Program-made: the position numbers and the translations under genes
NCBI RefSeq assembly: GCF_058153355.1
Contig: NZ_CM177019.1
DNA length: 64,000 nucleotides
Direction: 5' to 3' (one strand)
The notes under the pieces: model-generated
Databases searched by the model: none
Told to the model about the DNA's origin: nothing
Seen by the model: the letters and a program-made list of their open reading frames with translations, nothing else
In this document: one piece after another, positions 6,681-62,218 of the stretch
Numbering within the stretch: the stretch's first letter is position 1
How the letters are laid out: each line of letters opens with the position of its first letter

Positions 6681-7132
6681 CTGATAAGACGCGTCAGCGT
6701 CGCATCAGTCAACCGGCTTGGGCGTTAGATGTCGGATGCGGCGTGACCGCCTTATCCGACCTATGGGGTGGAGCACTTCACAGCGGTGTAGGCCTGATAA
6801 GACGCGCCAGCGTCGCATCAGTCAACTGGCTTGGGCGTTAGATGTCGGATGCGGCGTGACCGCCTTATCCGACCTACGGGGTGGAGCACTTCACAGCGGT
6901 GTAGGCCTGATAAGACGCGCCAGCGTCGCATCAGGCAACCGGCTCGGGCATTAGATGTCGGATGCGGCGTGACCGCCTTATCCGACCTACGGGGTGGAGC
7001 ACTTCACAGCGGTGTAGGCCTGATAAGACGCGCCAGCGTCGCATCAGGCAACCGGCTTGGGCGTTAGATGTCGGATGCGGCGTGACCGCCTTATCCGACC
7101 TACGGGGTGCCACACTTCACGGCAGTTTAGCG
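6681..7132. repeat. Tandem array of four ~113-bp REP/BIME units in the mqo-eco intergenic region
   Basis: The motif ctgataagacgcg recurs at 6681, 6794, 6907 and 7020 (period 113 bp); each unit holds two inverted REP-like palindromes (ctgataagacgcgccagcgtcgcatcag and gatgcggcgtgaccgccttatccgacctac). Confidence 0.8.
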
Positions 7133-52558: not shown

Positions 52559-54250
52559 ATGAAAACGCTGCTGATTATTGACGCTAATCTCGGTCAGGCA
52601 CGCGCCTATATGGCGAAGACCCTGCTGGGCGCGGCGGCGCGAAAAGCAAAACTGGAAATCATCGACAATCCGAACGACGCTGAAATGGCGATTGTTCTCG
52701 GTGATTCCATCCCGAACGACAGCGCGCTGAACGGTAAAAATGTCTGGCTGGGCGATATTTCCCGGGCAGTTGCGCACCCTGAGCTGTTCCTGAGTGAAGC
52801 CAAAGGCCATGCGAAACCTTACACTGCACCGGTCGCTGCGACAGCACCAGTTGCCACCAGTGGTCCGAAACGCGTAGTTGCGGTGACAGCTTGCCCGACT
52901 GGCGTAGCACACACATTTATGGCGGCTGAAGCCATTGAAACCGAAGCGAAAAAACGTGGCTGGTGGGTGAAAGTTGAAACCCGTGGTTCTGTTGGCGCGG
53001 GTAATGCGATCACCCCTGAAGAAGTAGCCGCAGCGGATCTGGTGATTGTGGCGGCAGATATCGAAGTGGATCTGGCGAAATTTGCTGGTAAACCGATGTA
53101 TCGCACCTCTACCGGTCTGGCGCTGAAGAAAACCGCGCAGGAACTGGATAAAGCGGTTGCTGAAGCAACGCCGTATGAACCGGCGGGCAAAGCTCAAACA
53201 GCGACCACTGAAGGTAAGAAAGAGGGTGCAGGCGCTTACCGTCACTTGCTGACGGGCGTCTCTTACATGCTGCCGATGGTCGTTGCAGGTGGTCTGTGTA
53301 TCGCGCTTTCTTTTGCTTTTGGTATCGAAGCGTTTAAAGAGCCGGGTACGTTGGCAGCGGCGCTGATGCAGATTGGTGGTGGTTCAGCCTTTGCGCTGAT
53401 GGTGCCGGTACTGGCAGGTTACATTGCCTTCTCCATTGCCGATCGTCCGGGTCTCACGCCGGGTCTGATTGGCGGTATGCTGGCGGTCAGCACCGGTTCT
53501 GGCTTCATTGGGGGTATTATTGCGGGCTTCCTGGCTGGTTACATTGCGAAGTTAATCAGTACGCAACTGAAACTGCCACAGAGTATGGAGGCGCTGAAAC
53601 CGATCCTGATCATTCCGCTAATTTCCAGTCTGGTGGTCGGTCTGGCGATGATCTACCTGATCGGTAAACCGGTTGCTGGCATTCTCGAAGGGTTGACTCA
53701 CTGGCTGCAGACCATGGGGACTGCGAATGCGGTTCTGCTGGGGGCGATCCTCGGTGGCATGATGTGTACTGACATGGGCGGTCCGGTAAATAAAGCAGCG
53801 TACGCATTCGGTGTGGGTCTGCTGAGTACTCAAACCTATGGCCCGATGGCGGCGATTATGGCGGCAGGTATGGTGCCACCGCTGGCAATGGGTCTGGCAA
53901 CAATGGTGGCGCGTCGCAAATTCGACAAAGCGCAGCAGGAAGGTGGCAAAGCCGCTCTGGTTCTTGGTCTGTGCTTTATTTCGGAAGGTGCAATTCCGTT
54001 TGCTGCTCGTGATCCGATGCGTGTGCTGCCGTGTTGTATCGTTGGTGGGGCGCTGACTGGCGCAATCTCAATGGCGATTGGTGCGAAACTGATGGCACCG
54101 CACGGTGGTCTGTTTGTTCTGCTGATCCCTGGCGCTATTACGCCGGTACTGGGTTACCTGGTAGCAATTATTGCCGGTACGCTGGTGGCGGGTTTGGCCT
54201 ATGCCTTTCTGAAACGTCCGGAAGTGGACGCAGTAGCGAAAGCAGCGTAA
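52559..54250 (+). CDS. fruA: Fructose PTS EIIB'BC component FruA
   Basis: 563-aa ORF; EIIB Cys motif (VTACPTGVAHT) and polytopic EIIC domain. Confidence 0.92.
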   Translation: MKTLLIIDANLGQARAYMAKTLLGAAARKAKLEIIDNPNDAEMAIVLGDSIPNDSALNGKNVWLGDISRAVAHPELFLSEAKGHAKPYTAPVAATAPVATSGPKRVVAVTACPTGVAHTFMAAEAIETEAKKRGWWVKVETRGSVGAGNAITPEEVAAADLVIVAADIEVDLAKFAGKPMYRTSTGLALKKTAQELDKAVAEATPYEPAGKAQTATTEGKKEGAGAYRHLLTGVSYMLPMVVAGGLCIALSFAFGIEAFKEPGTLAAALMQIGGGSAFALMVPVLAGYIAFSIADRPGLTPGLIGGMLAVSTGSGFIGGIIAGFLAGYIAKLISTQLKLPQSMEALKPILIIPLISSLVVGLAMIYLIGKPVAGILEGLTHWLQTMGTANAVLLGAILGGMMCTDMGGPVNKAAYAFGVGLLSTQTYGPMAAIMAAGMVPPLAMGLATMVARRKFDKAQQEGGKAALVLGLCFISEGAIPFAARDPMRVLPCCIVGGALTGAISMAIGAKLMAPHGGLFVLLIPGAITPVLGYLVAIIAGTLVAGLAYAFLKRPEVDAVAKAA

Positions 54251-54260
54251 TAAAAGGTGT

Positions 54261-54292
54261 GTTACAGGGCAGAAATTTCCTGCCCTGTAACA
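54261..54292 (+). terminator. Intrinsic terminator-like hairpin after fruA
   Basis: gttacagggcag-aaatttc-ctgccctgtaac, a perfect 12-bp stem immediately after the fruA stop; the downstream T-run is weak. Confidence 0.5.
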
Positions 54293-54672
54293 TTTGATGA
54301 GCGCAAAGGGAATGACCAGTTTGTGAATGTAATTTTATGAATTTAAATGGTTTTATCTTTCAGTAGAAACCTGAAATGTTCATCAAACACTAAGGTTATT
54401 TCCTCAAGGGCAGATTATTTTCTGCCCTTTTTAGTGTTCCTGTTCTGTGCATCCAGTCACAAATTCCTCACTTTTGTAATTCAGGCATTTAATCGCATTT
54501 TGTGAGCCTGCTCAAATCTGCCCATTTTGCCTCTCTGGCGGCAATTTACTTTACGTAAAACATGCATACTATGAGCACATGTTTAAATATGAACACATGT
54601 TTAAACCGTCTTTGCAGTATCTATATTCTTGTGGATTGACAGGGTTGGTAATTTTTTACCAGAGGACGTGCT

Positions 54673-55614
54673 ATGCGCGAAAAGGATTATGTCGTAATTA
54701 TAGGCTCGGCGAATATTGATGTCGCCGGATATTCACATGAATCATTAAATTATGCGGATTCAAATCCAGGTAAAATAAAATTTACGCCTGGTGGGGTAGG
54801 GCGCAATATTGCACAAAACCTGGCGTTGCTGGGTAATAAAGCCTGGCTACTGAGCGCCGTAGGCAGTGATTTTTATGGTCAATCGCTGCTAACGCAAACC
54901 AATCAATCTGGCGTTTATGTCGATAAATGCCTGATTGTGCCGGGAGAAAATACGTCGAGCTATTTATCATTACTCGATAATACCGGTGAAATGCTGGTTG
55001 CTATAAATGACATGAATATTAGCAACGCTATTACAGCTGAATATCTCGCACAGCACCGTGAATTTATTCAGAGGGCAAAGGTCATTGTCGCGGACTGTAA
55101 TATCAGTGAAGAGGCACTGGCATGGATTCTGGATAATGCCGCCAACGTACCCGTATTTGTCGATCCTGTTTCTGCGTGGAAATGTGTCAAAGTGCGCGAC
55201 CGTCTAAATCTGATCCACACTCTCAAGCCAAACCGCCTTGAAGCGGAAACCCTGAGTGGGATTGCGTTGTCAGGGCGTGAAGATGTGGCAAAGGTTGCCG
55301 CCTGGTTCCATCAACATGGCCTGAACCGACTGGTATTGAGCATGGGCGGCGACGGCGTTTATTACAGTGATATCAGCGGTGAAAGTGGTTGGTCTGCGCC
55401 GATTAAAACCAATGTCATTAATGTTACCGGAGCGGGCGATGCCATGATGGCGGGACTTGCTTCGTGTTGGGTAGACGGAATGCCGTTTGCCGAATCTGTT
55501 CGTTTCGCACAGGGATGTTCGTCAATGGCGCTCTCCTGTGAATACACCAATAACCCCGATTTATCGATTGCCAACGTTATATCGTTAGTGGAGAACGCAG
55601 AATGTCTGAATTAA
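54673..55614 (+). CDS. psuK: Pseudouridine kinase (PfkB family)
   Basis: 313-aa ORF with ribokinase-family motifs (GGVGRNIA, GAGDAMMAG). Confidence 0.88.
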   Translation: MREKDYVVIIGSANIDVAGYSHESLNYADSNPGKIKFTPGGVGRNIAQNLALLGNKAWLLSAVGSDFYGQSLLTQTNQSGVYVDKCLIVPGENTSSYLSLLDNTGEMLVAINDMNISNAITAEYLAQHREFIQRAKVIVADCNISEEALAWILDNAANVPVFVDPVSAWKCVKVRDRLNLIHTLKPNRLEAETLSGIALSGREDVAKVAAWFHQHGLNRLVLSMGGDGVYYSDISGESGWSAPIKTNVINVTGAGDAMMAGLASCWVDGMPFAESVRFAQGCSSMALSCEYTNNPDLSIANVISLVENAECLN

Positions 55615-56540
55615 AAATTTCCCCTGAATTATTACAAATTTCCCCGGAAGTGCAGGACGCTTTAAAAAACAAAAAACCGGTTGTGGCACTGGAATCGACC
55701 ATCATTTCTCACGGGATGCCATTCCCGCAAAATGCTGAGACGGCAATTGAAGTAGAAGACACAATTCGTAAGCACGGTGCTGTACCTGCAACAATCGCCA
55801 TTATTGGTGGTGTCATGAAAGTAGGTTTGAGCAAAGAAGAAATTGAATTGTTAGGCCGTGAAGGACATAACGTGACGAAAGTCAGTCGCCGTGATTTACC
55901 TTTTGTCGTTGCCGCAGGAAAAAATGGCGCGACCACCGTTGCTTCAACGATGATTATCGCGGCACTTGCAGGAATTAAAGTATTTGCAACGGGGGGGATT
56001 GGTGGTGTGCATCGCGGTGCGGAACATACATTCGATATTTCTGCCGATTTACAGGAACTGGCAAATACTAATGTCACCGTTGTTTGTGCCGGTGCAAAAT
56101 CTATTCTCGATTTAGGATTAACAACAGAATATTTAGAAACCTTCGGTGTACCGTTAATTGGCTATCAGACAAAAGCGCTGCCTGCGTTTTTCTGCCGTAC
56201 CAGCCCATTTGAAGTCAGTATTCGCCTTGATAGTGCCACGGAAATCGCTCGTGCAATGGCAGTGAAATGGCAAACCGGTTTGAACGGCGGCCTGGTAGTG
56301 GCGAATCCGATCCCGGAGCAGTTTGCGATGCCGGAGGAATCTATCAATGCAGCCATAGATCAAGCTGTCGCCGAAGCCGAAGAGCAGGGCGTTATTGGTA
56401 AAGAAAGTACACCGTTCCTGCTGGCTCGTGTTGCTGAACTGACCGGTGGTGACAGCCTGAAATCCAACATCCAACTGGTGTTCAACAACGCCATTCTGGC
56501 GAGCGAAATTGCCAAAGAATACCAGCGTCTCGCGGGTTAA
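55602..56540 (+). CDS. psuG: Pseudouridine-5'-phosphate glycosidase
   Basis: 312-aa ORF overlapping psuK by 13 nt; indigoidine-synthase-A-like family. Confidence 0.9.
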   Translation: MSELKISPELLQISPEVQDALKNKKPVVALESTIISHGMPFPQNAETAIEVEDTIRKHGAVPATIAIIGGVMKVGLSKEEIELLGREGHNVTKVSRRDLPFVVAAGKNGATTVASTMIIAALAGIKVFATGGIGGVHRGAEHTFDISADLQELANTNVTVVCAGAKSILDLGLTTEYLETFGVPLIGYQTKALPAFFCRTSPFEVSIRLDSATEIARAMAVKWQTGLNGGLVVANPIPEQFAMPEESINAAIDQAVAEAEEQGVIGKESTPFLLARVAELTGGDSLKSNIQLVFNNAILASEIAKEYQRLAG

Positions 56541-56633: not shown

Positions 56634-57884
56634 ATGGATATAATGAGAAGTTTGGTGGGTATGGTGGTATTGCTGGCAATTGCATTCTTATTGTCAGTGA
56701 ATAAAAAGCGTATCAGCGTACGCACGGTCGGAGCTGCATTGCTGCTGCAAATCGCTATTGGTGGCATTATGCTCTACTTCCCACCGGGAAAATGGGCAGT
56801 AGAGCAGGCGGCATTAGGCGTTCATAAAGTGATGTCTTACAGTGATGCCGGTAGCGCCTTCATTTTTGGTTCGCTGGTTGGGCCGAAAATGGATGTCCTG
56901 TTTGATGGCGCGGGCTTTATCTTCGCCTTTCGCGTACTTCCGGCAATTATTTTCGTCACTGCGCTCATCAGCCTGCTGTACTACATTGGCGTGATGGAGC
57001 TGCTAATCCGCATTCTTGGCAGTATTTTTCAGAAAGCCCTCAACATCAGCAAAATCGAATCTTTTGTTGCGGTTACCACTATTTTCCTCGGGCAAAATGA
57101 GATCCCGGCAATCGTTAAACCGTTTATCGATCGCATGAATCGCAACGAGCTATTTACGGCAATTTGTAGCGGGATGGCGTCCATTGCTGGTTCGATGATG
57201 ATTGGTTATGCCGGAATGGGCGTACCAATTGACTACCTGTTAGCGGCATCGCTGATGGCGATCCCTGGTGGTATTTTGTTTGCACGTATTCTTAGCCCAG
57301 CCACCGAGCCTTCGCAGGTGACATTTGAAAATCTGTCGTTCAGCGAAACGCCGCCAAAAAGCTTTATCGAAGCGGCGGCGAGCGGTGCGATGACCGGGTT
57401 GAAAATCGCCGCTGGTGTGGCGACGGTGGTAATGGCGTTTGTGGCAATTATTGCGCTGATCAACGGCATTATCGGCGGAATTGGTGGCTGGTTTGGTTTT
57501 TCCAATGCCTCTCTGGAAAGTATTTTTGGCTATGTGCTGGCACCGCTGGCGTGGATCATGGGCGTGGACTGGAGTGATGCCAACCTTGCGGGTAGCCTGA
57601 TTGGGCAGAAACTGGCGATTAACGAATTCGTCGCTTACCTGAGTTTCTCCCCATACCTGCAAACGGGCGGCACGCTGGAAGTGAAAACCATTGCGATTAT
57701 CTCCTTTGCGCTTTGTGGTTTTGCTAACTTTGGTTCTATCGGTGTTGTCGTTGGGGCGTTTTCGGCTATTTCGCCAAAACGCGCGCCGGAAATCGCTCAG
57801 CTTGGGTTACGGGCGTTGGCAGCAGCAACGCTTTCCAACCTGATGAGCGCGACCATTGCCGGGTTCTTTATTGGTTTAGCTTGA
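56634..57884 (+). CDS. psuT: Nucleoside (putative pseudouridine) transporter, NupC/CNT family
   Basis: 416-aa product from ATG at 56634 (MDIMRSLVGMVVLLAIAFLL...); close paralogue of the ORF at 59824-61074. Confidence 0.9.
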   Translation: MDIMRSLVGMVVLLAIAFLLSVNKKRISVRTVGAALLLQIAIGGIMLYFPPGKWAVEQAALGVHKVMSYSDAGSAFIFGSLVGPKMDVLFDGAGFIFAFRVLPAIIFVTALISLLYYIGVMELLIRILGSIFQKALNISKIESFVAVTTIFLGQNEIPAIVKPFIDRMNRNELFTAICSGMASIAGSMMIGYAGMGVPIDYLLAASLMAIPGGILFARILSPATEPSQVTFENLSFSETPPKSFIEAAASGAMTGLKIAAGVATVVMAFVAIIALINGIIGGIGGWFGFSNASLESIFGYVLAPLAWIMGVDWSDANLAGSLIGQKLAINEFVAYLSFSPYLQTGGTLEVKTIAIISFALCGFANFGSIGVVVGAFSAISPKRAPEIAQLGLRALAAATLSNLMSATIAGFFIGLA

Positions 57885-57954: not shown

Positions 57955-58614
57955 TTACTGCATCATCCCGGAGAATTTATTCTCCGGGTCCATCTCCAGC
58001 GCCAGCCCTAACAACTGCTTTCTGTTTTTAATTAAATACCCTTTCTTACTTTTAATTAATAAACCGTCGTGAATGAGTTGAGCGATCACATATAGTAAGT
58101 GACGATAAGTAACACCTAAATACTCTGCTGCCTGGGTATGTTTTTCGTGATAAAGATCACCTTCCTGCGAGAGTAATATAAATGCTGCCAGGCGATTCAC
58201 TAACGGAAATGATTGATTCTGAGTTAAAGAAACAATATTGCGATAATTTTTATGGCTTAAAGTAACGCAGAGTTTTCGTAAAAATAGCGTGTCGTTTAAT
58301 AACAGCGGACGGTAATTTTTCATGGGGAGTGCAAGGCACCAACACTCTTCAATCGCCTGTACCGCTCGTGGTTCATGATCTTTATCGATTAACTCAATCT
58401 CGCCAATAAAACAGGGTGCAGCAAAGAAATCAATCAGCGACACGCGACCATTAGCAAGCGTGGCGTAAAGCCTGGCGCGGCCTCGCGTCAGGTAAAACAG
58501 CCATGACGGCTGTTGCCCTTCCTGCACAATGTAGTCACGCGCTAAAAAATGAAACAGCCGTGTATCGGCTGAAACATCCGTTGAAAAGCAATCCTTATAC
58601 GCGGACTCACTCAT
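57955..58614 (-). CDS. yeiL: CRP/FNR-family transcriptional regulator YeiL
   Basis: ~219-aa ORF with a cNMP-binding-like domain and C-terminal HTH; start at 58614 chosen by length (alternative 58653). Confidence 0.85.
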
Positions 58615-58782
58615 CAATTGCTGCTTAAGATCATTATTGTGGATTTCTTTCACGATGTTTATCCGCTATGAGATTTCTCATATTTAGCATACGTACGCTG
58701 TTGTTAAGATTCAATCATCGGCCCGGTCGAATTTTCTTTGCTGTAGAAAAAATAACACAACTGGAAACAGAGGAAATAAACA

Positions 58783-59724
58783 ATGGAAAAGAGAAAAATT
58801 ATTCTGGATTGTGATCCGGGTCATGATGATGCTATTGCCATAATGATGGCCGCGAAACATCCGGCGATTGATTTATTAGGTATCACTATTGTGGCGGGGA
58901 ATCAAACCCTCGATAAAACATTAATTAATGGCCTGAATGTTTGCCAGAAACTGGAGATTAATGTTCCGGTTTATGCGGGGATGCCGCAACCCATTATGCG
59001 TCAACAAATCGTTGCCGATAATATTCACGGTGAAACCGGGCTGGATGGTCCGGTATTCGAACCGCTGACTCGTCAGGCAGAAAACACCCATGCGGTGAAA
59101 TATATCATCGATACCCTGATGGCAAGCGATGGCGATATCACTCTGGTGCCGGTTGGTCCGCTTTCAAATATCGCGGTGGCAATGCGTATGCAGCCCGCAA
59201 TCCTGCCGAAAATCCGTGAAATTGTACTGATGGGCGGCGCTTACGGTACTGGCAACTTCACCCCATCTGCCGAGTTCAACATTTTTGCTGACCCGGAAGC
59301 CGCACGCGTGGTGTTCACCTCCGGCGTTCCATTAGTGATGATGGGCCTCGATCTCACCAACCAGACCGTTTGCACTCCGGACGTGATTGCACGGATGGAA
59401 AGGGCAGGCGGCCCTGCCGGAGAGTTGTTCAGCGACATCATGAACTTCACTCTGAAAACCCAGTTCGAAAACTACGGTCTGGCTGGCGGCCCGGTACATG
59501 ACGCCACCTGTATCGGTTATCTGATTAACCCCGATGGTATTAAAACCTAGGAGATGTACGTCGAAGTGGACGTCAACAGTGGCCCTTGTTACGGGCGTAC
59601 CGTCTGCGACGAGCTGGGCGTTCTTGGCAAGCCCGCCAATACCAAAGTCGGCATCACTATTGATACCGACTGGTTCTGGGGATTAGTCGAAGAGTGCGTG
59701 CGCGGCTACATCAAAACCCATTAA
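58783..59724 (+). pseudogene. rihB: Pyrimidine-specific ribonucleoside hydrolase RihB interrupted by an in-frame amber (TAG) codon at 59548-59550
   Basis: N-terminal DPGHDDAIA hydrolase motif; the reading frame continues uninterrupted after the TAG for 58 more codons ([57 protein letters not shown]), giving the expected 313 codons in total. Confidence 0.8.
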
Positions 59725-59823
59725 GTGTTGATAACAAGCCGGGACAGTATCGCAAGATGCAGGCCCGGCTATTTCTGATGGGCAGAAAGCCGTCGCCCAA
59801 AATGACATGAAGAGATAATAACT

Positions 59824-61074
59824 ATGGATGTCATGAGAAGTGTTCTGGGAATGGTGGTACTGCTGGCAATTGCGTTTTTGCTGTCAGTAAACAAGAAGAA
59901 GATCAGCCTGCGTACCGTTGGCGCGGCGTTAGTGTTACAGGTCGTGATTGGCGGCATTATGCTTTGGTTACCGCCAGGGCGTTGGGTCGCAGAAAAAGTC
60001 GCTTTTGGCGTGCATAAAGTGATGGCGTACAGCGACGCAGGTAGCGCATTTATCTTCGGTTCTCTGGTTGGACCGAAAATGGACACCTTATTTGATGGCG
60101 CAGGATTTATCTTTGGTTTCAGGGTATTACCGGCAATTATCTTCGTTACAGCACTGGTGAGTATTCTCTACTACATCGGTGTGATGGGGATCTTAATTCG
60201 CATTCTCGGCGGTATATTCCAGAAAGCGTTAAATATCAGCAAGATCGAGTCATTCGTCGCGGTCACTACCATTTTCCTCGGGCAAAACGAAATTCCGGCA
60301 ATCGTCAAACCCTTTATCGATCGTCTGAATCGCAATGAATTATTTACAGCGATTTGTAGCGGGATGGCCTCGATTGCTGGTTCGACAATGATTGGTTACG
60401 CCGCACTGGGCGTACCAGTGGAGTATTTGCTGGCGGCATCGTTAATGGCGATTCCCGGCGGGATCTTGTTTGCCCGCCTGTTAAGCCCGGCTACGGAATC
60501 TTCTCAGGTTTCCTTTAATAACCTCTCTTTCACCGAAACACCGCCAAAGAGCATTATTGAAGCCGCTGCGACAGGGGCAATGACCGGGCTGAAAATCGCT
60601 GCGGGTGTGGCGACAGTGGTGATGGCATTTGTCGCCATCATTGCGTTGATCAACGGTGTTATCGGCGGCGTTGGTGGCTGGTTTGGTTTTGAACATGCCT
60701 CGCTGGAGTCCATTTTAGGTTACCTGCTGGCCCCGCTGGCGTGGGTGATGGGTGTTGACTGGAGTGATGCGAATCTTGCCGGAAGTTTGATTGGACAGAA
60801 GCTGGCGATTAATGAATTTGTCGCTTACCTCAATTTCTCACCCTATCTGCAAACGGCTGGCACTCTCGATGCTAAAACCGTGGCGATTATTTCCTTCGCG
60901 TTGTGCGGTTTCGCTAACTTTGGTTCTATCGAGGTGGTGGTTGGTGCATTTTCTGCGGTTGCGCCACACCGTGCGCCGGAAATCGCCCAGCTTGGTTTAC
61001 GCGCGCTGGCGGCGGCGACACTTTCTAACCTGATGAGTGCGACCATTGCCGGGTTCTTTATTGGCTTAGCGTAG
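59824..61074 (+). CDS. nupX: Nucleoside transporter NupX (NupC/CNT family)
   Basis: 416-aa ORF (MDVMRSVLGMVVLLAIAFLL...), highly similar to psuT along its whole length. Confidence 0.9.
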   Translation: MDVMRSVLGMVVLLAIAFLLSVNKKKISLRTVGAALVLQVVIGGIMLWLPPGRWVAEKVAFGVHKVMAYSDAGSAFIFGSLVGPKMDTLFDGAGFIFGFRVLPAIIFVTALVSILYYIGVMGILIRILGGIFQKALNISKIESFVAVTTIFLGQNEIPAIVKPFIDRLNRNELFTAICSGMASIAGSTMIGYAALGVPVEYLLAASLMAIPGGILFARLLSPATESSQVSFNNLSFTETPPKSIIEAAATGAMTGLKIAAGVATVVMAFVAIIALINGVIGGVGGWFGFEHASLESILGYLLAPLAWVMGVDWSDANLAGSLIGQKLAINEFVAYLNFSPYLQTAGTLDAKTVAIISFALCGFANFGSIEVVVGAFSAVAPHRAPEIAQLGLRALAAATLSNLMSATIAGFFIGLA

Positions 61075-61129: not shown

Positions 61130-62218
61130 TTACACCATCGGCACTAATGAAAGCGCGTTATCGGCAGACAGGGTAGGGTTGTTTAAGCTGCCGCTGGCGC
61201 GTGAAATTGCCGCGCAGGCCATAGCAAAACGGGCACTATCACGGAAACTGCTTCCTTCCAGAAAGCTATACACCAGGCCCGCCATAAAACCATCGTCAGC
61301 ACCAAAACTGTCTACCGTCTTATGCGCTGGCGCAGTCAGCAAAAATTGTTCGCCATCCTTTTGGCTGCAATAAACAGACTCATCGGGCAAATAAACAAAC
61401 AGTTGCTGAACGCCTTGCTGATGCAACGCATTCACTGCGGCATTACGATCAGCATCGCGGGTTATCGGCTGGCCCCATAAAATTTCCAGCTCCGGCAAAG
61501 TGGGTTTCAGAGTGTGAATATGCGCCAGCCAGTGTTTGATTTTGCCCGCTTTGAATTCTGAAACGGTATCGACAAACACCGGGATTTCATCAGCGAGGGT
61601 AAAGACCCACTCCAGCGCCTCGGCTGTCAGGTTGCAATCAGCCAGTACCACGCCCGCATGACGAAGTAAATCGCGCGACCCGTTCAGTAGTTGCGGTGTC
61701 AACTGATCCAGCAGATGGGTATCGTTAATCGCCAGCACGGTTTGATCGTCTCGATTGGCAATTGCCAGATACGTCGATGTGCTTTGACCATGTAAACGAA
61801 CGCAGCCGGAGACATTCACTCCGGCGCGGCGCGTTTCTTCCAGGAGCATTTCGCCATAAAAGTCATCGCCAATCACTGAAAGCAAATGGACGTCGCGGCC
61901 TAACAGCGCCAGATTGTGGGCGATATTGCGTCCAACGCCGCCTGCCGAGCAATGAATTGTACCGGGATGAGAAGCCGCTTGCGGGTAACGGATATCCGCC
62001 ATCCCGCGAATATCCATATTGATTGTCCCCACCACTACGCAGTATTCCTGCTCGGTGAGAATGTAACCTTTGCCTTTAATCCGACCTTTGCGCATTAAAT
62101 CCATAATATGCGCTGCAACACGCGAACGGCTGATTTGCAGCATATCCGCAATTTCGTTCTGCTGAATCAGCGGGTTACGCCTTAATATTGCAAGGATCTC
62201 CTTCTCCCGGTTATTCAT
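61130..62218 (-). CDS. yeiI: Sugar kinase with N-terminal HTH domain, YeiI (PfkB family)
   Basis: 362-aa ORF; N-terminal wHTH (EILAILRRNPLIQQNEIADMLQISRSRV) plus ribokinase-like domain. Confidence 0.88.
   Translation of the reverse strand: MNNREKEILAILRRNPLIQQNEIADMLQISRSRVAAHIMDLMRKGRIKGKGYILTEQEYCVVVGTINMDIRGMADIRYPQAASHPGTIHCSAGGVGRNIAHNLALLGRDVHLLSVIGDDFYGEMLLEETRRAGVNVSGCVRLHGQSTSTYLAIANRDDQTVLAINDTHLLDQLTPQLLNGSRDLLRHAGVVLADCNLTAEALEWVFTLADEIPVFVDTVSEFKAGKIKHWLAHIHTLKPTLPELEILWGQPITRDADRNAAVNALHQQGVQQLFVYLPDESVYCSQKDGEQFLLTAPAHKTVDSFGADDGFMAGLVYSFLEGSSFRDSARFAMACAAISRASGSLNNPTLSADNALSLVPMV

Follow-up and report, generated by a model that had tools for sequence, protein, structure and literature searches.

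Two 12-bp palindromes lie 18 bp apart in front of the pseudouridine operon psuK-psuG-psuT (psuKGT) of Escherichia coli, the first of them directly behind the predicted −10 hexamer. They were found in a stretch of 64,000 nucleotides from contig NZ_CM177019.1 (assembly GCF_058153355.1), which is called the window in its full length. The boxes are probably, with a rough probability of 0.65, tandem operators for YeiI, a predicted pseudouridine-sensing repressor, at a promoter that would depend on CRP. The argument draws on the sequence anatomy of the promoter, its conservation, the linkage of the genes and residue patterns in YeiI.

Anatomy of the repeat upstream of psuK

The window is E. coli DNA. 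Positions 54536-54615 (80 bp) were 100% identical to O157:H7 and other strains, and the intergenic region between fruA and psuK was 96.9% identical to that of K-12, in which the repeat has the same sequence. The gene order is fruBKA, psuK, psuG, psuT, yeiL, rihB, nupX, yeiI and nfo, with yeiL, yeiI and nfo on the minus strand. The genes and sites in question are the following.

54673-55614, plus strand: psuK, pseudouridine kinase, start codon ATG at 54673, heading psuK-psuG-psuT (open reading frame (ORF), annotation of the K-12 orthologue, Pfam PfkB)
55602-56540, plus strand: psuG, same operon
56634-57884, plus strand: psuT, same operon
61130-62218, minus strand: yeiI, proposed cognate regulator, with HTH_24 (residues 1-48) and PfkB (58-348) domains (Pfam, NCBIfam, synteny)
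54570-54587, plus strand: tandem unit 1, TATGAGCACATGTTTAAA, 18 bp (Tandem Repeats Finder and repeat search)
54588-54605, plus strand: tandem unit 2, TATGAACACATGTTTAAA, 18 bp, 17/18 identical to unit 1 (same programs)
54573-54584, unstranded: box 1, proposed operator O1, GAGCACATGTTT, a RAACA-YR-TGTTY palindrome
54591-54602, unstranded: box 2, proposed operator O2, GAACACATGTTT, 18 bp from box 1

A preliminary description of the window had reported a tandem 17-bp direct repeat at 54573-54607. The repeat exists, but its period is 18 bp: both programs returned 2.0 copies at 54570-54605 with 17/18 identity. The 12-mer CACATGTTTAAA occurs exactly twice in the window (54576-54587 and 54594-54605, 18 bp from start to start). 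Both copies fall inside the reported interval, 68-97 bp 5' of the psuK ATG (about 70-100 bp in the preliminary description), and the full 18-bp units lie at 68-103 bp. The small palindromes ACATGT and TTTAAA described within the repeat are both present. It is the only tandem in the window with a period of 16-30 bp and at most one mismatch, and no such tandem arose in any of 150 dinucleotide-preserving shuffles.

Each unit contains the sequence RARCAYRTGYTY, a 12-bp palindrome GAACA-YR-TGTTC with the general form RAACA-YR-TGTTY. Besides the two boxes, this motif was matched in the window at a single site inside the yejB coding region, and there was no match near nupX, rihB or yeiL. A small ORF that starts in box 1 (MFKYEHMFK..., 54579-54719) was discarded as a candidate, being out of frame with psuK and not conserved.

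Conservation of two palindromes at a fixed distance

A protein scan with PsuK yielded 11 orthologous loci from Escherichia species, E. albertii, five Citrobacter, a Raoultella metagenome-assembled genome and two Buttiauxella. The 200 bp 5' of psuK were aligned and invariant columns were counted on seven lineages.

54473-54497: upstream flank, 4% invariant columns
54498-54519, unstranded: CRP-like site TTTTGTGAGCCTGCTCAAATCT, core TGTGA-N6-TCAAA, centre at 54508.5, 64% (14/22)
54520-54544: interval from the CRP-like site to the −35 hexamer, 16%
54545-54550, plus strand: −35 hexamer TTTACT of the psuK promoter, with an adaptive single-nucleotide polymorphism (SNP) at 54547, 83% (5/6)
54551-54566: −35/−10 spacer, 50%
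54567-54572, plus strand: predicted −10 hexamer TACTAT, separated by 16 bp from the −35 hexamer, 67%
54573-54584: box 1, 58% (7/12)
54585-54590: spacer between the boxes, 17% (1/6)
54591-54602: box 2, 67% (8/12)
54603-54644: 42 bp 3' of box 2, 12%

The boxes, the two hexamers and the CRP-like site thus stand out as islands with 58-83% invariant columns, compared with 4-17% in the flanks and between the boxes. Not a single insertion or deletion was found from the CRP-like site through box 2 in the aligned species. Across 12 lineages the central dinucleotide of the boxes varies between CA, TG, CG and TA and the AACA/TGTT arms are kept, as expected of a DNA palindrome that is contacted by a symmetric protein. 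The distance between the boxes is 18 bp from Escherichia through Buttiauxella and in Salmonella, Yersinia and Pasteurella, and 19 bp in Shewanella and Aliivibrio. Phylogenetic footprinting, which had been suggested as a check of the repeat, therefore showed both boxes to be conserved and their spacing to be fixed.

The direct repeat as such fared differently. Only the major allele of E. coli and its nearest relatives carry it in near-perfect form. A divergent haplotype resembling E. albertii (approx. 78% identical) occurs in about 1,200 of 5,426 complete E. coli genomes, and its units are only 12/18 alike with both boxes intact. In seven sampled divergent E. coli genomes the boxes and the −35 and −10 hexamers were invariant, and spacer and flanks varied. 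Since the arms of the boxes are conserved and the identity of the repeat is not, the conserved entity is a pair of palindromes 18 bp apart and not the direct repeat that had been taken for the functional unit.

Boxes in front of HTH-PfkB genes of other genera

A palindromised matrix was trained solely on the boxes of Escherichia, Citrobacter and Buttiauxella. Whole loci of 9-15 kb were scanned with it for pairs 17-19 bp apart at ten other loci. In eight of them, the top-ranked match was a two-box site just 5' of psuK or of a gene encoding a helix-turn-helix (HTH) domain fused to a PfkB domain. The positions of box 1 relative to the start codon are listed by genus.

Yersinia: −33
Serratia: −33
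Pasteurella: −33
Shewanella: −58
Aliivibrio: −47
Enterobacter: −96
Salmonella: −103
Affinibrenneria: −276

For a single locus, the probability that the top match comes to lie in the 300 bp in front of a given gene is approx. 0.02-0.03. The result is far beyond chance, even if only three to four independent lineages are counted.

The arrangement TTTACT-N16-TAnnAT-box 1-N6-box 2 is common to the species from E. coli through Salmonella and Affinibrenneria. In Yersinia and Serratia, TTTACT and both boxes are retained with their spacing, and the −10 hexamer is less clear. The HTH-PfkB genes of these two genera (loci L015 and L016, 6001-6027) were called from an ATG inside box 1 (MFKNKQVS...). An alignment of homologues suggests that the true start lies 27 nt downstream (MTSREKQIL); if so, box 2 would end 3 nt before the start codon.

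Linkage of yeiI and its homologues to the operon

In E. albertii, Citrobacter, Raoultella and Buttiauxella, psuK-psuG-psuT is followed by the convergent genes yeiI and nfo. Between psuT and yeiI, the E. coli clade has acquired the segment yeiL-rihB-nupX (57955-61074) by insertion. With 88% identity to PsuT, NupX looks like a duplicate of the transporter of the pseudouridine operon. The operon is likewise convergent to yeiI in Enterobacter, Salmonella and Affinibrenneria. In total, the convergent arrangement was found in nine genera. As the cluster of Salmonella and Affinibrenneria is located in an unrelated neighbourhood, the four genes travel together.

Operons of the type [HTH-PfkB]-psuG(-psuT), with no separate psuK, were found in Yersinia, Serratia, Pasteurella, Xenorhabdus, Shewanella, Aliivibrio and a contig of Ruminococcaceae. 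Among the clusters compared, no regulator gene other than that for YeiI or its HTH-PfkB homologue accompanies the operon in every case. For nfo>yeiI, a signal of a constitutive sigma-70 promoter has been reported (PMC3946193), as would suit a repressor that is produced constitutively.

YeiI as a probable pseudokinase

YeiI matched HTH_24 with E = 1e-10 and PfkB with E = 6e-68 in Pfam, and the NCBIfam model NF007416 with 809 bits. An AlphaFold2 model (mean predicted local distance difference test score 89) consists of a three-helix N-terminal domain and a PfkB body. Its closest solved fold is E. coli PsuK with a TM-score of 0.95 and a root-mean-square deviation of 1.7-1.9 Å. A search of the PDB returned no solved HTH-PfkB protein.

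The kinase part of the operon-first HTH-PfkB proteins is 59-60% identical to E. coli PsuK, and YeiI is 38% identical to it. Structures of PsuK define the contacts to pseudouridine and the roles of the residues, and show a homodimer (PMC9247573). Such a homodimer fits one dimer per palindrome. Twenty functional positions in PsuK numbering were compared for the operon-first proteins, YeiI and ten other members of the YeiI class. The operon-first proteins agree with PsuK at 20/20 positions and their kinase motifs are intact. YeiI and nine of the ten other members of its class retain all twelve contacts, namely N14, D16, S30, G41, V42, N45, Y97, N143, V166, S167, K170 and D256. All eleven have replaced N187 by T, S or A, whereby the asparagine of the NXXE motif is gone, and G255 by D (GAGD to GADD). 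D29 is also lost in all eleven, and M114 is changed to T in nine. The motifs of active PfkB kinases (NXXE, and GAGD with anion hole and catalytic Asp) are consequently not found intact in any member of the YeiI class. The recognition helix ISRSxVAxHIM(N/D)L is nearly alike in both classes, which matches the DNA motif that they share.

We lean slightly towards the view that YeiI is 'PsuR', a pseudouridine-sensing pseudokinase repressor that arose when a bifunctional, self-repressing HTH-pseudouridine kinase was duplicated and its roles were split. In the simplest history, one copy of the ancestral gene would have taken the promoter-proximal position as PsuK, and the other would have become the sensor and regulator YeiI. 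HTH-pseudouridine kinases of the ancestral type are still found in Yersinia, Serratia, Pasteurella, Shewanella and Vibrionaceae.

Promoter, CRP-like site and an adaptive mutation in the −35 hexamer

The −10 hexamer reads TAYTAT or TACAGT across the species and is always immediately 5' of box 1, which abuts it and covers the predicted transcription start. From the conserved promoter, this start would be at about 54579-54580. Box 1 would then extend from about −6 to +6 and box 2 from about +12 to +24.

The CRP-like site has 9/10 bases of the core TGTGA-N6-TCACA, and other genera have TGTGA-N6-TCATA or TTACA. The distance from its centre to box 1 is 64.5 bp in the seven psuK-type lineages, 65.5 bp in Affinibrenneria and 54.5 bp in Pasteurella, in which the site is exactly 10 bp closer to box 1, or one helical turn less. 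Class I CRP sites are centred near −61.5, −71.5 or −82.5. With a start at 54579 or 54580, the centre would be at −70.5 or −71.5, in agreement with class I geometry. psuK is not named in the main text of a study on CRP by systematic evolution of ligands by exponential enrichment (PMC3105977).

Two further elements were noted in this region. A second CRP-like site, TGTGCATCCAGTCACA, is located at 54446-54461, 55 bp 5' of the first, with 9/10 core bases, and E. albertii, Citrobacter and Enterobacter likewise have a distal CRP-like site, at 52-53 bp. Tandem CRP sites at a spacing of about 52-55 bp are typical of nucleoside promoters under the control of CytR; no CytR half-sites were identified at the psuK promoter. 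A perfect 10-bp palindrome, TTTACGTAAA, at 54550-54559 in the −35/−10 spacer is restricted to Escherichia.

A recurrent allele between psuK and fruA, NC_000913.2:2257444 A->C, is known from colonisation of the mouse gut (PMC7518454, PMC9509342, PMC6731689, PMC10340439). In long-term stationary phase, 'psuKp A->C' was a unique allele found in three populations (PMC7858067). The coordinates were calibrated on three srlR mutations of the same table, which gave a unique offset of 1978. The SNP corresponds to position 54547 of the window and to 2259422 of NC_000913.3, 126 bp 5' of the ATG. On the sense strand it is T->G at the third base of the −35 hexamer and turns TTTACT into TTGACT, a better −35 hexamer. 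It is the only recurrent adaptive allele 5' of psuK in the main-text passages on psuK of the evolution papers, which do not state its location in the −35 hexamer. As it improves this element, it lends independent support to the conserved promoter. By strengthening the −35 hexamer, the exchange plausibly increases expression while catabolite repression acts or inducer is scarce. This fits the mutant phenotype reported in PMC9509342, altered psuK expression and faster growth.

Proposed control of psuKGT

The earlier idea that a dimeric regulator, YeiI being the candidate, acts on a tandem operator agrees with the conservation of the boxes, their position at the predicted promoter, the specificity of the matrix and the gene linkage. 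In the scheme proposed here, the start of transcription, the binding of YeiI to DNA, its action as a repressor, the effector and the dependence on CRP are all predicted from sequence. YeiI, a winged-helix-PfkB protein, would occupy each box (O1 and O2) as a dimer and block RNA polymerase where transcription starts. The effector, pseudouridine or perhaps pseudouridine 5'-phosphate, would bind to the kinase-like domain and release YeiI from the DNA. Full expression would additionally involve cAMP-CRP at the class-I-type site approx. 70.5-71.5 bp 5' of the predicted start, and CRP would be needed because the −35 hexamer TTTACT is weak.

In many Gammaproteobacteria, the operon begins with the gene for a single protein that has an HTH domain and an intact pseudouridine kinase, and this protein would act on the same boxes as an autorepressor. 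In Escherichia, Citrobacter, Salmonella and Enterobacter the roles would be split: PsuK would provide catalysis without an HTH domain, and YeiI would have retained the HTH domain and the pseudouridine pocket and lost key catalytic motifs.

Several points weigh against this scheme. The evolution experiments that repeatedly hit the psuK promoter also hit repressor genes such as frlR, srlR, dgoR and glpR, but their main texts mention no yeiI knock-outs, only the single −35 allele. Were the loss of YeiI sufficient for high expression, this would be unexpected; a possible explanation is that pseudouridine was already present and promoter strength was limiting. The spacing of 18 bp between the boxes is not an integer number of helical turns. 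There is no box near yeiI itself in E. coli, and the matrix scan did not recover a two-box site in Xenorhabdus and in the Ruminococcaceae contig. With 8/12 matches to the consensus, TTTACT-16-TACTAT is slightly below the threshold of the promoter scan, which instead flagged TTTAAA-16-TATATT at 54600-54627 (9/12), a candidate promoter restricted to E. coli. The position of the transcription start is a prediction. Finally, a competing assignment of the boxes to another regulator has to be considered.

Alternative explanations

The boxes may be real operators bound by a different protein, either YeiL of the CRP/FNR family or a factor encoded elsewhere; we regard this as improbable. The yeiL gene is located 70 bp downstream of psuT in the window, and AACA-N2-TGTT resembles the 5-N4-5 palindromes of some proteins of the CRP/FNR family, for example the PrfA box. 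YeiL had also been named as an alternative regulator in the preliminary description. It is disfavoured because the boxes are also conserved where yeiL does not belong to the psu-yeiI cluster. E. albertii, Citrobacter, Raoultella, Buttiauxella, Enterobacter, Salmonella and Affinibrenneria have the boxes in clusters that lack yeiL-rihB-nupX, and yeiL is absent from most of the box-bearing clusters. In Yersinia, Serratia, Pasteurella, Shewanella and Aliivibrio, the HTH-PfkB protein is the only regulator consistently encoded together with the boxes.

Less probable still is a role of YeiI as an activator or dual regulator, or an action of the boxes from the downstream promoter TTTAAA-16-TATATT. The absence of yeiI loss-of-function alleles from the main texts of the evolution experiments and the higher score of this promoter in the scan would be in line with it. 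However, sites that abut the −10 hexamer and cover +1 are typical of repressors. The −10 hexamer of the downstream promoter is not kept outside the E. coli clade, and box 2 would overlap its −35 hexamer, so that binding would again be repressing.

An element at the RNA level, in which the two units form a hairpin in the 5' untranslated region that controls stability, translation or attenuation, is very unlikely. In E. coli the units can indeed pair in an 11-bp hairpin (54581-54591 with 54596-54606), and the leader of 97 nt folds better than shuffled sequences (z = −2.6). Across the species, however, only five invariant pairs survive. These are the adjacent half-sites of the operators; the other pairs are broken and there is no convincing compensatory change. 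The flips of the central YR preserve the DNA palindrome but not an RNA helix, and a hairpin inside a single box would need an impossible loop of 2 nt. A scan of 54000-54900 against Rfam gave matches at chance level only.

A recent slippage duplication of a functionless 18-bp stretch, as the head-to-tail units might indicate with their 17/18 identity, which is limited to the major allele of E. coli and its closest relatives, is hardly credible, because both boxes and their spacing are older than the genus, the units of about 1,200 E. coli genomes are merely 12/18 alike with both boxes retained, and no copy-number variants occurred among seven sampled E. coli genomes (the population searches gave bands of identity and coverage only).

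Two other readings of the boxes were rejected. A DeoR-like TGTT-N8-AACA across the boxes would leave the equally conserved outer half-sites without partners. Resemblances to KdgR, FabR and LexA sites are partial similarities in sequence only.

Further observations at and near the locus

A hairpin TGGTAA-TTTT-TTACCA at 54646-54661, directly 5' of the Shine-Dalgarno sequence GAGGA of psuK (54662-54666), is kept in all 11 species. One of its pairs covaries: the major E. coli allele has U-A, E. albertii has U.G, and C-G is present in Citrobacter and Buttiauxella as well as in the minor allele of E. coli. This suggests an RNA-level element that may affect translation or stability. A sigma-54 reading of the Citrobacter sequence TGGCAA-N5-TTGCC at this place was rejected, since the E. 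coli sequence is TGGTAA...TTACC and transcription starting at this point would produce no leader. The hairpin of the fruA terminator (54260-54292) has a near copy with a T-run 142 bp downstream (54406-54429). There is no annotation between the two in K-12. The terminator may have been duplicated, or a short transcript that is missing from the annotation may end here.

E. coli has two deep haplotypes at this locus (loci L030 and L031), with psuK and its promoter approx. 78% identical in 1,201 of 5,426 genomes. yeiI is approx. 80% identical in about 2,000 E. coli genomes. There are also recombinant combinations. Neighbouring genes, among them fruA, are almost identical. Strain 2017.10.01CC (locus L022) carries IS1 just 5' of the −10 position, and psuK, psuG, psuT and yeiL are deleted. 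Most of the fruA-psuK intergenic region is missing in strain ER1709. In the strain of the window, a CAG->TAG exchange relative to K-12 at 59548-59550 cuts the nucleosidase RihB to 255 of 313 residues.

Two other tandem repeats were observed in the window.

6681-7120: 113-bp unit in 3.9 copies with 96% matches and a content like that of repetitive extragenic palindromes/bacterial interspersed mosaic elements (REP/BIME)
55610-55649: 21-bp unit in 1.9 copies at the 5' end of psuG, encoding LKISPEL/LQISPEV

Comparison with known regulatory systems

No regulator of psuKGT and no function of YeiI was found in the literature searched, with EcoCyc, RegulonDB and RegPrecise outside the search. YeiI is referred to there only as an 'uncharacterised sugar kinase' or a 'hypothetical transcription factor'. 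If the proposed reading is true, this orphan protein would gain a function and would be, as far as the literature searched shows, the first characterised transcription factor on a PfkB/ribokinase fold. The operon would gain a concrete and testable control scheme of CRP activation and a specific repressor. It would also be a clean natural case of a bifunctional enzyme-regulator that split into an enzyme and a pseudoenzyme sensor. A regulator/operator pair responsive to pseudouridine could be used as a biosensor in the engineering of strains producing pseudouridine for mRNA therapeutics (PMC10552469, PMC13090712).

In sequence, the core of the psuK box is near-identical to the 'Cheo box' of Bacillus LexA (GAAC-N4-GTTC) and to the PrfA box of Listeria (TTAACANNTGTTAA), as GAACAnnTGTTC includes both GAAC-N4-GTTC and AACAnnTGTT. 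This likeness is restricted to the sequence and those proteins are not present here; LexA of E. coli recognises CTGT-N8-ACAG. In their architecture, deoP2, cdd, udp and nupG under CytR/DeoR are similar to the psuK promoter, as they serve nucleoside catabolism and have upstream CRP-like sites and a specific repressor site at the core promoter. The psuK boxes differ from CytR sites, which are of the TTGCA type, and share only the outer TGTT...AACA with the DeoR operator TGTTAGAA.TTCTAACA (11/16, compared by eye).

Close relatives in design are NagC and Mlc of E. coli, repressors of the ROK family. Like the proposed YeiI, they combine an N-terminal HTH domain with a sugar-kinase-type fold turned into a ligand sensor, and they repress a catabolic or transport operon via palindromic operators at a CRP-dependent promoter. 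YeiI differs from them in its sensor, which is of the PfkB/ribokinase type and not of the ROK/ASKHA type, in its HTH_24 domain and in its operator, which has another sequence and an 18-bp tandem layout, and its role is a prediction. BirA, NadR, PutA and the archaeal riboflavin kinase RbkR are enzymes and repressors at once. Yersinia, Serratia, Pasteurella and Shewanella seem to have something similar in their operon-first HTH-PfkB proteins: the intact kinase motifs of these proteins, their HTH domain and the boxes in their own promoter indicate an enzyme that is apparently also an autorepressor. They belong to another enzyme family than these four, and in E. coli, unlike in these four, the roles are apparently split between the paralogues PsuK and YeiI. 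The logic of a nucleoside-catabolism promoter served by CRP and a specific repressor with an enzyme-fold sensor is familiar from NagC/Mlc, BirA, NadR and the CytR promoters, and the new elements would be the PfkB-based regulator and the split into an enzyme and a pseudoenzyme.

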